This document shows positions 3,017 through 53,795 of a stretch of 64,000 nt of DNA, piece by piece; the stretch's first letter is position 1; every line of letters starts with the position of its first letter. Source of the stretch: Zetaproteobacteria bacterium (lineage in GTDB: Bacteria > Pseudomonadota > Zetaproteobacteria > Mariprofundales > J009); assembly GCA_003696765.1 (NCBI GenBank), contig RFFX01000050.1:12894-76893 (forward strand). The letters are read 5' to 3'. A program made the translations under genes and the position numbers. The notes beneath the pieces were generated by a model. That model saw nothing but the letters and a program-made list of their open reading frames with translations. It made no database searches and was not told where the DNA came from.

Positions 3017-3173
3017 ATGATGGAATCGCAAAAAGTCCGTCCTTGGACTCTTTGCTTGACGGGGATCGAAGAGCGCAGTCTTAGATCGCCTTACAAGACA
3101 GTCGCTTGCATGCGCAAGCTCCCGTTTTGCGCGGCCGTCCTGGCCGCGATGATGATTTCTTGGGAAACCATCA
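3017..3173 (-). repeat. Five-hairpin mosaic intergenic repeat, full copy. The strand field of every repeat feature gives the strand on which the modules read E-D-C-B-A and the loops carry GGA.
   Basis: On the + strand it reads catgatggaatcGCAAAAAGTCCgtccttGGACtcTTTGC..GGGGATCGAAGAgcgcagTCTTaGATCgCC..CTTGCatgcGCAAG..TTTTGCGCGGCCgtcctGGCCGCGatgATGATTTCttggGAAACCATCA. It shares all modules with the copies at 24016, 18253, 32003, 43591 and 47596. Confidence 0.9.
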
Positions 3174-3440
3174 GCCATACACCGGCTGCGCATGCCGAAG
3201 GGAAGCCTCCGAATCAAGCGCCGGCGGCGGAAGAGGAGGGAGGGGGGGCGGAACGGCGCCCGGGGCCTGCCGGCACGGGGGGGCAGTCCGCCCCGAGCTC
3301 GTTTGCAACCGCTCCGTCAGCCTTTTGCCCTCTTCCCTCTCCGATCGCCGGCCGCAATGCCCACCCGGCACTCAGCCCGACCGCACCCCAACCCCGTCTC
3401 CCCACCGCGTGCCGGGGAGCGAAAAACGCGGCACGCCAAC

Positions 3441-3472
3441 GCCGCGATGATGGTTTCTTGCGAAACCATCAC
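3441..3472. repeat. Solo E-module hairpin of the mosaic repeat
   Basis: Reads gccgcGATGATGGTTTCttgcGAAACCATCAc. The TGA stop of the HU-like gene (3469-3471, minus strand) lies inside its outer arm. Confidence 0.75.
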
Positions 3473-3825
3473 TGTTTCGGATTGAGCTGCTCCTTCACCG
3501 CCTGGAACGGCTTGAAGCGGAGCACGTTCCGCGCCGGAATGGTCATCTTCTCCCCCGTCCTGGGGTTGCGCCCCGTATGCGCCTTGCGCTCCTGCATGGT
3601 GAACTTGCCGAATCCCTTCAACCGCACCGCATCACCGCTCTTGACCTGCGTCACTACGACGGACTTGAATGCAGCCAGCGCCGCCTCAGCCTGTTCCACG
3701 CTCAGACCGCTCCGCTTGGCCATCGCCCTGGCCAGCTCCTTGTCTCCCATCGCCGACGCCGATCCGCTTGAGAGCAGAAGCAGCGCCGATGCAATCACCA
3801 ATCCTTGCTTCATTCGTCTGCCCAT
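3469..3825 (-). CDS. HU/IHF (DNABII) family protein with a predicted N-terminal Sec signal peptide
   Basis: The core DKELARAMAKRSGLSVEQAEAALAAFKSVVVTQVKSGDAVRLKGFGKFTMQERKAHTGRNPRTGEKMTIPARNVLRFKPFQAVKEQL is a clear HU fold (GFGxF ... GRNPxTGE). A strong SD, AAGGGAGGTG, sits 6 nt before the ATG at 3825, giving MGRRMKQGLVIASALLLLSSGSASA|MG. The internal ATG at 3750 has no SD. Confidence 0.75.
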   Translation of the reverse strand: MGRRMKQGLVIASALLLLSSGSASAMGDKELARAMAKRSGLSVEQAEAALAAFKSVVVTQVKSGDAVRLKGFGKFTMQERKAHTGRNPRTGEKMTIPARNVLRFKPFQAVKEQLNPKQ

Positions 3826-53200: not shown

Positions 53201-53705
53201 CCTCGACATGGATCGGCAGCAGGTAGGTGATGCGGTCGCCGTCGCGCCGCAGCAGCGCGCCGCGCCGCCCGGCGGCGATGGCGGCAAAGGCCGGATCATC
53301 GATATGGCGCGGCGGGACGCCGTCGTCGGCGCGGGAGAAGCGCCGCTCTCCGATGAAGGCGTTGACCTGGTCGATGGTCTTCTGATCGCGGAAGGCCTCG
53401 GTGCCGTCGACGCGGAAGATGATCGCCGACTCGAACTCCGGCAGCGCGGCCACCCGCTTCATCCAGTCGCGGGCGATGTCGCCGTGGCCGGCGAGCATGA
53501 TCGCCTTGAGGCTGGAGACCATGGTGTCGGCGGCCAGTTTGATGCGCGCCGCCTCCTGCTGCGCCACCACCCGGTGCTGGAAGAGGGAGAGGACGATCAG
53601 CGCGCCGACCAGCAGCGGTGCGAAGAGCAGCGCCAGCCTGAGCGGCAGCCGCCGGGCCAGCGTCGCCCTTCCCGATGTTCCGACCCGCTTCCCGCCGTCC
53701 GTCAC
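50229..53705 (-). CDS. Giant multidomain sensor: TM, periplasmic domain with a CxxCH motif, TM, HAMP, GAF, HisKA, HATPase_c, pseudo-receiver, receiver, degenerate GGDEF
   Basis: A 1158-aa protein. Periplasmic PIHVEEPCLRCHGYTSHP. HAMP DDEIGRLAMSFNRMLDSL. H-box FLANTSHELRTPLNAIIG. N/G boxes NLVGNAVKFT, DNGEGI, GGTGLGLS. Receiver LVLVVDDEPSVRE...MIILDLMMPGMSGFEV...IFTAKD. The C-terminal GGDEF-like domain reads RMGESRF where GGDEF is expected, and WEITNFRRLSEQYGYRSLN where D.D.FK..ND..GH..GD is expected. Confidence 0.9.
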   Translation of the reverse strand: MTDGGKRVGTSGRATLARRLPLRLALLFAPLLVGALIVLSLFQHRVVAQQEAARIKLAADTMVSSLKAIMLAGHGDIARDWMKRVAALPEFESAIIFRVDGTEAFRDQKTIDQVNAFIGERRFSRADDGVPPRHIDDPAFAAIAAGRRGALLRRDGDRITYLLPIHVEEPCLRCHGYTSHPIRGVLRLAVDSRASEVLEEGQERMAWLALFMVLLLAVGTWWLLRREVLTDLLALSDDVARVEVGDRGHRSAIRRDDEIGRLAMSFNRMLDSLHASELRLRATLDQQRALTEAVIALAGEQVSDALLTRVAELAMEMTGARYAMIAHQLDGERHFVPLGMEPEQLARLEGNPPQGRGLLGLLWRERRFVRVDDIAAHPLSAGFPEGHAPMRTLLGGPITFGDELLGVLYLTEKEGGAPFTEEDERLLRTLNSACGVALANSRTLAGLEQRVRERTEKLTRANEQLRQHELELELANDELRRANEFKDQFLANTSHELRTPLNAIIGFSELLANPRMGELNAKQKKFVQNIHNSGKGLLSVINNLLDLSKIESGMMDLHHESCRPAQLLEDVLEVMRPLADKKSIELRGSCAMEQEQSIFTDPGKLRQVLINLVGNAVKFTPDGGRIEVALRLLRHDGRLLLEGRVSDNGEGISEEDQERIFEPFVQAEAGLTRSHGGTGLGLSLTRKLVEMMGGGIAVESTLGEGSTFTFTVEVEAGDSEMIGAAIEEQAAGEAEAEAAPDATDGAPQQSGRQEPPLGKVKPVVLVVDGDHERAAAVAAILQHGGYDAVQTELAQVEEVATAYDPFLILLGVPDDPVELYRDLQQLRSAKCTRDLPVTLLGGTAAEPSFSFGTIDSVEKRLSDETLGEMLAHHSFQVARQANTSLVLVVDDEPSVREYMQEKLTSEGYRPLLAKDGPEGVEMARVHQPDMIILDLMMPGMSGFEVVEQLKRHPETADIPVMIFTAKDLKREEVMRLGQEVDKVLAKGSVGPKELLREMRSIELLYPAQAKLIDATVRMYNLRYLRLRLAQECNRAERYSHSFGLVGWEITNFRRLSEQYGYRSLNAALHTMSEQVRRALRGGDVAIRMGESRFAVLLTGIDEDGVERVREKLQYRLQSQRHPVVGTFAVVTAAVSHVSGMEPRELIDVLERRLNRKIA

Positions 53706-53763
53706 CGCACCCCCTTTCCGGCCGACGGCGGCAGGCCGCCCGCCCCGTACCCGGGATGATCCC

Positions 53764-53795
53764 CCGCAACACGTCCGTCCACAGACCTGTTGCGG
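53764..53795 (-). repeat. Variant solo A-type hairpin
   Basis: Reads CCGCAACAcgtccgtccacagaccTGTTGCGG. It shares the cgtccgtcc core of module A and lies between the two kinase genes. Confidence 0.4.

Follow-up and report, generated by a model that had tools for sequence, protein, structure and literature searches.

How do hairpin-rich repeats of about 155 nt come to lie between flagellar genes that overlap or abut one another in related genomes? The question is raised by a 64-kb stretch of zetaproteobacterial DNA (contig RFFX01000050.1, positions 12,894 to 76,893, hereafter the window, of which the whole length was analysed), in which an original prediction, made from the sequence alone, had described such units as chains of five short inverted repeats (E, D, C, B and A) and had left open whether they move. 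The repeats are probably a family of ~155-bp non-autonomous DNA transposons, that is, miniature transposable elements with inverted repeats (MITEs). This reading is preferred to that of a REP/BIME mosaic because the units have terminal inverted repeats, are flanked by target-site duplications and are missing from orthologous sites, and the same three features now support their mobility. The elements are also small (below ~500 bp) and carry no transposase gene, the units measuring 149–157 bp and their variants from 46 to ~415 bp.

A profile built from the eight full units and run with nhmmer on the 64-kb window gave sense-strand matches with E values down to 5e-57, and the covariance model R1 recovered 8 full units of 149–157 bp at 124–181 bits, a near-full unit and ~15 truncated or internally deleted pieces. 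Taken together, nhmmer and the covariance model yield ~24 pieces with a combined cover of ~2.4 kb, i.e. 3.7% of the window, or roughly one copy per 3 kb (Table 1). The same repeat families were recovered by a mechanical repeat search. The guanine plus cytosine (GC) content of the units is 55–64%, compared with ~68% for the host window. A chance origin of the repeats is excluded, both by the nhmmer E value of 5e-57 and by the RNA fold (z ~ −9). All six full units named in the original prediction were matched by the covariance model (135–181 bits), the five inverted repeats have the sequences it described, and the sequence bears out both the tandem at 18.2–18.56 kb and the inverted pair of A modules at 32123-32200. 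Its list of copies was however incomplete: 4271-4419 (+) and 17065-17220 (+) are also full units, the copy given as A-B-C at 19704 is there but is the near-full unit 19704-19855 (−), and the pieces at 6437-6485, 6507-6628, 7583-7676, 15224-15320, 18767-18864 and 39517-39653 had been missed or listed in part, while the coverage had been put at ~2 kb.

The units are bounded by imperfect terminal inverted repeats of 19–20 bp, the left end being GAYGRYTTYGCAARAAGTC and the reverse complement of the right end GATSGAATCGCAAAAAGTC; the two agree at 15 of 19 positions in low-GC copies and at 13 of 19 in high-GC copies. Young copies bear copy-specific direct repeats of 6–7 bp on their flanks, in an A-rich target (ANNNAT-like). 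Ten of these duplications are exact, both in the window (ATTCAT at 32005, ATCCAT at 18767, ATGGAAG at 24019 and AGGAAT at 18257) and outside it (AGGTAT in L004, AAGTAT in L016, AAGGATT in L012, AATAAG in L021, AAGAAT in L007 and AAACTT in L010, where L002 to L023 denote loci in other genomes and metagenome contigs). Another three agree at 5 of 6 positions (ATGGCT/ATGGCC at 3019, AGTTCT/AGTTCC at 43592 and AACCAT/AGCCAT at 17065). A 6/6 flank match at a fixed position has a chance of 1 in 4096 in each case. Besides the 155-bp form, these ends delimit a minimal form of 46 bp (L016) and composites of ~315–415 bp. In low-GC metagenome copies, the composites have an additional conserved module of ~260 nt, located 5' of the 155-nt unit (L021 3093-3407; L007 ~4095-4486; L005 5204-5450; L010 ~1329-1678; L015 3766-4056). 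This module opens with the same left terminal repeat and holds a long hairpin (GGGGATGGACGGCTATTTGGGGTTT...AAACCCCAAATAGCCGTCCATGTC); the composites are flanked by exact 6-bp duplications, and the module is absent from the window. The truncated forms reported earlier do exist, as deletion derivatives and not as independent building blocks. In particular, the A-only forms look like deletions between copies of an 8-nt direct repeat, AAAAAGTC, which occurs both in E (right arm) and in A (left arm), as the sequence of L016 suggests. The ends can also be read as TG...CA with a 4-bp duplication, which recalls the IS3 family.

Three loci (L002, L022 and L023) have the same flagellar gene order as the window, with genes overlapping or abutting and no hits of the model. 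Their FliA proteins are 85% (L002, 57.6% GC), 80% (L022) and 81% (L023) identical to the one encoded at 17441-18214 (−) in the window, and since they belong to other species, presence and absence are compared here between species. By this comparison, the window alone has units at seven or more junctions of the flagellar cluster. At the junction between flhG and a small open reading frame (ORF), L002 has a GTGA overlap, while the window reads GGATGATCCAT-[unit]-ATCCATGGCGG; with the unit and one duplicate taken out, the sequence would be TGA-TCC-ATG, which is a tight junction of the normal kind. The names flhF, flhG, flhB, flhA, flgF and flgK were assigned to ORFs of the window from synteny with L002 and L022 and from the Pfam hits of those loci.

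The high-GC and low-GC units have the same five predicted hairpins, in the fixed order E-D-C-B-A. The window unit 32005-32159 reaches a minimum free energy of −85.9 kcal/mol and L006 one of −70.1 kcal/mol (z −9.0 and −8.8, respectively, relative to dinucleotide shuffles). In a MAFFT alignment of 16 units, 92.6% of the cells pair, against 84% in shuffles and ~40% with slid partners, and changes on both sides are seen in 17 pairs. For 23 sense copies, in an alignment fitted to the covariance model itself, 93.4% of the cells pair (~40% with a slid partner), double changes occur in 24 of 51 pairs (125 cells), and none of 500 shuffles reaches any of the five measures. The pairing-preserving changes first noticed in the window are thereby confirmed statistically, copies from other genomes having been added. 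Stem D is GCGACC/GGTCGC in high-GC and GTGCCC/GGGCAC in low-GC copies; the corresponding pairs are GGGGATCGAAGA/TCTTCGATCCCC and GGAAACCGAAAA/TTTTCGGTTTCC for stem B, and AAATCCG/CGGATTT and AAATCAATGGG/CCCGTTGATTT for the outer part of stem C. Helix A hardly varies. Constant loops and linkers include the D loop ATGGAS, GCAAAT, TTGTAAGG, CCGT and the entire A hairpin. A long-range helix (UCGY with GCGA, around D to A) is also predicted, with one compensatory change among 16 sequences.

The orientation of the copies is strongly biased. About 20 of 23 pieces in the window are co-oriented with the adjoining genes, as are 10 of the 11 assessable copies outside it (the exception being L003), a tally that rests partly on an ORF map based on third-codon-position GC content and on our reading of the junctions. 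For 30 of 34 co-oriented copies, a binomial estimate is ~3e-6, the copies not being fully independent. In the three exceptions in the window (7583-7676, 17065-17220 and 39517-39653), the A hairpin is decayed or missing, or the copy is degenerate in other ways. The pieces at 3849− and 4271+, on either side of a divergent site, are oppositely oriented, and so are those at 32005+ and 32163−, which flank a convergent one; replication direction is therefore not the cause of the bias. The two strands differ little in hairpin stability and open reading frames, and the GC skew of the units is small, with no evident asymmetry of Rho sites; as the strands are alike in these respects, the bias points to the loop and linker sequence of the RNA or to a strand-specific step of insertion. 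On the sense strand, 65 G:U cells are counted vs 38 A:C cells. The compensatory changes and the almost exclusive survival in the sense orientation speak for selection that acts beyond the ends of the element, on the transcript or on a single DNA strand.

Several observations weigh against the interpretation of the family as MITEs. A search for a partner insertion sequence, with paired ends 0.7–3 kb apart, found neither a transposase nor an autonomous element bounded by these ends in the window or the 23 loci. Several older copies (L005, L020 and 4271) have no recognisable duplications. Internal hairpins kept by compensatory change are not expected of ordinary MITEs, and transposition alone leaves this anatomy unexplained; many of the double changes separate just two subfamilies, which means fewer independent events than the cell counts. 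Finally, the orientation bias could come from the insertion mechanism instead of selection.

The internal anatomy may be approached from the loops. In most of 25 aligned copies, an ANGGAN hexaloop with a closing C-G pair caps both hairpin D and hairpin A, the two being on one strand; nearly all aligned copies, from every host, show A[CTA]GGA[CGT] there. The 3' end of the unit and its C/B linker contain further GGA motifs. The ANGGAN loops fit the CsrA/RsmE consensus CANGGANG, CsrA-binding RNAs usually presenting GGA in the loops of at least two short hairpins. The window itself contains csrA (6199-6444, −; Pfam CsrA 1.2e-14), overlapping fliW (5721-6236; Pfam FliW 8e-18) by 38 nt, with two A hairpins immediately upstream of the start of csrA. 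This csrA-fliW pair closes the flagellar cluster and is downstream of the flgL-like gene. Similar AYGGAY loops are the basis of the predicted CsrA binding of TwoAYGGAY RNA (PMC4333381). The units might accordingly be mainly CsrA-binding RNA modules, which would place neighbouring genes under CsrA control or act as a dispersed sponge, and this would be compatible with spread by transposition. The preservation of the loops on the same strand in nearly all copies and in all hosts, and the strong sense bias, which implies that the loop and linker sequence matters in RNA, agree with this idea. We nevertheless consider it rather unlikely: the D loop of two full copies (43592 and 24019) lacks GGA, the flagellar region is not significantly enriched (~16 pieces in 34.5 kb vs 6 in 29.5 kb by our own count), no Rfam model of CsrB/Rsm or TwoAYGGAY matches, and the conserved loops could instead serve the mobilising enzyme. 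Slightly less likely still is a combined form, a mobile RNA module with two candidate CsrA-type hairpins which, by landing in the sense orientation at operon start codons, would bring genes under CsrA or titrate CsrA. If true, a FliW-CsrA lineage would have a dispersed equivalent of the CsrB/RsmZ sponges that is borne by a transposon.

The palindromic nature of the unit raises another possibility, a REP/BIME-type system in which palindromes are spread by a REP-associated tyrosine transposase (IS200-like) acting on hairpins of single-stranded DNA. Palindromes follow one another along the unit, D and A have their loop in common, and on one strand, as recognition of a single strand would require, and an ORF with a Y1_Tnp domain lies 1.7 kb from the unit in L005. 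We regard this explanation as highly improbable, however, since the five hairpins are unlike one another and in fixed order, not alternating copies of one REP palindrome of 20–40 nt, and since terminal inverted repeats and 6-bp flanking duplications are present. Y1 transposition is not known to yield either of these. Moreover, no arrangement of units flanking a gene for such a transposase was seen in the window (of which the ORFs were not fully screened), no extra model hairpins surround the L005 ORF, and there is no similarity to the REP/BIME of E. coli. The Y1 transposase-domain ORF occupies L005 2200-3204 (+), and the same gene is found in L011 at 4585-5598 (−), with a weak, sub-threshold hit to a DnaA-type helix-turn-helix; the L005 ORF shows no link to the repeats and is not flanked by model hits.

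The effects of the units on the adjoining genes are seen at their junctions. The left junction is usually (A)TGA, its T supplied by the target and its GA by the unit; hisS, fliP and a motB-like gene end in such a TGA. On the right, the duplicate and the next G restore the start ATG of the gene that follows. No Shine-Dalgarno sequence is found in the last 13 nt before at least seven genes that start 0–4 nt past a unit's 3' end (at 3018, 4424, 6444, 15222, 18765 and 19703 in the window, and at 5198 in L004); the insertion has displaced the former ribosome-binding sites of such genes. Neither a promoter-like site nor a consistent terminator call was obtained for units in a scan of 17–20 kb. That the unit is a small protein-coding cassette, with a 54-codon ORF running from the left-junction ATG to a TGA overlapping the next ATG and relaying translational coupling, is the least probable of the explanations and was rejected as a general one: the frame is open in the most consensus-like copies of 154–156 nt (32005, 18257, 47598, 43592, 17065 and L004 5203-5357), starts and ends in ATGA overlaps in L004 and the tandem array, and would suit the downstream genes without a Shine-Dalgarno sequence, but it is broken in 3019, 24019, 19704, L003 and most low-GC copies (152–153 nt, phase shifted), antisense frames are equally open, the covariation of the stems conserves structure and not peptide, and the sense-frame peptide has no homologue among 5.8 billion predicted proteins.

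For the family as MITEs, the following course of events may be proposed. A transposase acting in trans would make a 6-bp staggered cut. In a genome of 68% GC with almost no intergenic DNA, the A/T-rich targets that are tolerated would be stop/start junctions. On insertion into ...AT|G..., the first GA of the element would rebuild TGA at the left junction and the right-hand duplicate would rebuild ATG, so that both genes would survive. The inserted unit is presumably co-transcribed, its sense strand folding into five hairpins, and the A-only and other short forms would arise by deletion, e.g. between copies of AAAAAGTC.

Regarding the distribution of the family in other hosts, the fliA gene of the window is also found on a read-assembly contig of run SRR7905022, which is from sediment of the source pool of Jinata hot spring, Japan (PMC12501874). 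An exact scan with the B-module pattern over one genome per species (185,579 species) gave only two loci, one in an uncultured zetaproteobacterial metagenome-assembled genome (MAG) from SRP162660 and the other L004 (RFJX01000213.1, 55.6% GC), from MAG J113, which is labelled Gammaproteobacteria. The tandem copies of L004 (5194-5461) are 93% identical to copies of the window, and an A remnant (1035-1097) lies 4 kb away. Judging by its naming, J113 probably comes from the same Jinata study. The L004 copies may point to horizontal spread among co-resident organisms, or to a binning or assembly error at the repeat. In metagenomes, the B-module pattern gave 0 loci, and the A-module pattern gave 17 loci from the Joint Genome Institute collection, with 45–65% GC and diverged full units at 66–124 bits. 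Their neighbours encode a prepilin peptidase, a BadF-type ATPase, a Bax1-I protein, a formiminotransferase, a TPR protein, an HlyD-like protein and the N-terminus of a PUA_2-domain protein, read as sulfate adenylyltransferase; no neighbour is conserved among the metagenome copies, as expected for a mobile element. In L009 (1366-1410), the unit is downstream of the Bax1-I gene and a hairpin rich in GC (GGCCCGG GAAA CCGGGCC) comes immediately after it, so that the unit appears to lie inside the 3' untranslated region, ahead of a terminator-like stem.

No match was found in viral contigs (0 matches), in plasmids (with the high-GC or low-GC unit) or in 5,426 E. coli genomes (family consensus, blastn, word size 11). 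At the gathering threshold, Rfam found only a tRNA in the whole window, and a permissive Rfam search of one unit region and four metagenome loci returned chance microRNA or leader hits or nothing. The dispersed intergenic family of the original prediction thus stands without a catalogue match: it is absent from the Rfam, plasmid, E. coli and viral collections and from the literature searched, Dfam and ISfinder not being covered.

In the tests run, the family is real, dense and mobile, and belongs to the MITE kind without being Correia, ERIC or REP/BIME. Its distinctive traits are the insertion at stop/start junctions in a GC-rich genome, the near-exclusive sense orientation and the five hairpins with compensatory change. 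In an uncultured iron oxidiser from Jinata, at least seven once overlapping or abutting pairs of flagellar genes are now separated by ~160 nt of stable RNA structure (−86 kcal/mol), and several of the downstream genes have no Shine-Dalgarno sequence, which bears on how translational coupling and operon stoichiometry tolerate insertions. Selection beyond the transposition ends, across hosts of 45–68% GC, would be unusual for MITEs and is testable. There is also a practical side, as repeats of this density, with a copy roughly every 3 kb, will break up assemblies and may lead binning astray (compare the 93%-identical copy in the bin labelled Gammaproteobacteria).

Table 1. Copies and fragments of the repeat family in the 64-kb window, with an adjoining gene. 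Strand, score and context are given as far as available; E values are from nhmmer.
Position	Strand	Feature	Score	Context
3019-3172	−	Full unit E-D-C-B-A	157 bits	Flanks ATGGCT/ATGGCC; ATG of downstream ORF 1981-3018 abuts 3' end
3379-3476	−	E-D fragment	1.3e-7, 34 bits	Begins at TGA stop of HU-like gene
3469-3855		HU-like gene		Pfam Bac_DNA_binding
3848-3911	−	Degenerate B/A fragment	1e-4, 14.9 bits	5' of HU-like gene
4271-4419	+	Full unit, E module diverged	124 bits	CNNM/CorC gene (Pfam) begins 4 nt on, at 4424
6437-6485	−	A-only form	1e-7	Immediately 5' of csrA start codon
6507-6628	−	Partial unit, half of B + A	43 bits	Downstream of flgL-like gene
7583-7676	+	Degenerate E-D-C-B copy	5.6e-8	Opposed to flanking (−) genes
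15224-15320	−	A module + B remnant	27 bits	ATG at 3' end
17065-17220	+	Full unit	128 bits	Opposed to both flanking (−) genes; A hairpin decayed (loop ATAGAC); flanks AACCAT/AGCCAT
18199-18253	−	E-D fragment	0.006	Third member of array upstream of fliA
18257-18411	−	Full unit in tandem	171 bits	Flanks AGGAAT/AGGAAT
18418-18556	−	Internally deleted unit, E left arm joined to C/B junction, then B-A	68 bits	Begins at TGA of small ORF
18767-18864	−	Deletion form, E-D joined to B end, then A	69.5 bits	Flanks ATCCAT/ATCCAT
19704-19855	−	Near-full unit	88 bits	Between flhF and flhG (synteny names); flhG ATG abuts 3' end
24019-24175	−	Full unit	135 bits	Downstream of flhB-position ORF; flanks ATGGAAG/ATGGAAG
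28107-28135	−	Right half of A hairpin	0.012	Upstream of gene 26517-27944
32005-32159	+	Top-scoring full unit	181.5 bits	Flanks ATTCAT/ATTCAT; left junction forms hisS stop TGA
32163-32202	−	A-only form	1.3e-5	Inverted relative to preceding unit
37052-37209	−	E-D-C + degenerate B/A	51 bits	Begins at TGA of gene 37202-38140
39517-39653	+	C-B-A copy	74 bits	Opposed to flanking (−) genes; A hairpin decayed
41574-41616	−	Weak A-like remnant	0.049	
43592-43783	+	Full unit 43592-43747 + start of another E-D fragment	139 bits	Between two motB-like genes; flanks AGTTCT/AGTTCC
47598-47777	+	Full unit 47598-47751 + remnant of A right arm before nadE	165 bits	After fliP stop
53766-53793	−	Weak A-like remnant	13.9 bits	Between two (−) genes

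The window holds a flagellar cluster and housekeeping genes, among them fliA, fliP, two motB-like genes, hisS, priA and nadE, as well as fliW, the HU-like gene and the flgL-like gene (Pfam). The gene neighbours named in the original prediction broadly hold, with fliA, fliP, the two motB-like genes and nadE recovered, and flhF, flhG, flhB and flhA assigned by synteny and the Pfam hits of L002 and L022. An exact look-up of the FliP protein gave no record. The ATG at the 3' end of the copy at 15224-15320 is read as the probable start of a rod-protein (flgF-like) ORF, based on its N-terminal sequence and the synteny with L022. Two small ORFs lie between flhB and flhA (by synteny). Another small conserved ORF, of ~80–86 aa, is located between flhG and fliA (window 18505-18765, −; L002 9793-10035; L022 8987-9229); it overlaps both neighbours in the relatives, and the window copy has no Pfam hit. 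The ORF at 7729-9957, flgK-like by synteny, contains a 167-nt direct repeat (8262-8428 and 8628-8794, 89% identity, 366 nt apart) which looks like an internal coding duplication. A tRNA gene (32284-32355, −; Rfam, 66 bits) is found between the hisS-side repeats and priA.

The original prediction had likened the repeats to REP/BIME, ERIC or Correia elements; the likeness to the ERIC and Correia (MITE) type is retained, while that to REP/BIME is not. Like REP/BIME, which can stabilise or attenuate mRNA, the new family consists of intergenic palindromes in operons, but its hairpins are heterogeneous and in fixed order, it has inverted ends and target duplications, and there is no alternation of REP orientation. 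The TwoAYGGAY (RF01731) and CsrB/RsmZ RNAs have AYGGAY/ANGGAN hairpin loops as in the new family, which in contrast to them is mobile, lies within operons and has five hairpins, only two of them with ANGGAN loops; the covariance model of RF01731 gave no match at the gathering threshold or at E values up to 10. Closer parallels are Correia, ERIC and BOX, which are small non-autonomous transposons that are co-transcribed, have stable folds and can change the fate of an mRNA (PMC10969869). BOX of Streptococcus pneumoniae is a modular MITE (boxA, boxB and boxC) with size variants, clustering, mutual insertion and structured transcripts (PMC10969869); its hosts are unrelated to those of the new family, which lies at stop/start junctions in a GC-rich genome. 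ERIC are structured intergenic MITE-like repeats of ~127 bp, transcribed in operons with orientation-dependent effects on mRNA (PMC10969869). The new family differs from them in its ends and module set, shows no sequence similarity to them (5,426 E. coli genomes) and, unlike ERIC, has hosts that span 45–68% GC. The Correia elements of Neisseria (CREE/NEMIS) are 100–155 bp long and present in hundreds of intergenic copies near genes, where their co-transcribed hairpins alter expression (PMC10969869). Size, terminal inverted repeats and target duplication are common to both families. However, Correia duplicates TA and the new family 6–7 bp, and while the ~26-bp ends of Correia pair into one long hairpin, the new family has five separate internal hairpins with compensatory changes, its ends being unpaired in the predicted fold and the left end folding on itself as hairpin E. 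It further differs from Correia in that no promoter-like sites were found (scan of 17–20 kb) and in its strong bias towards the sense orientation.

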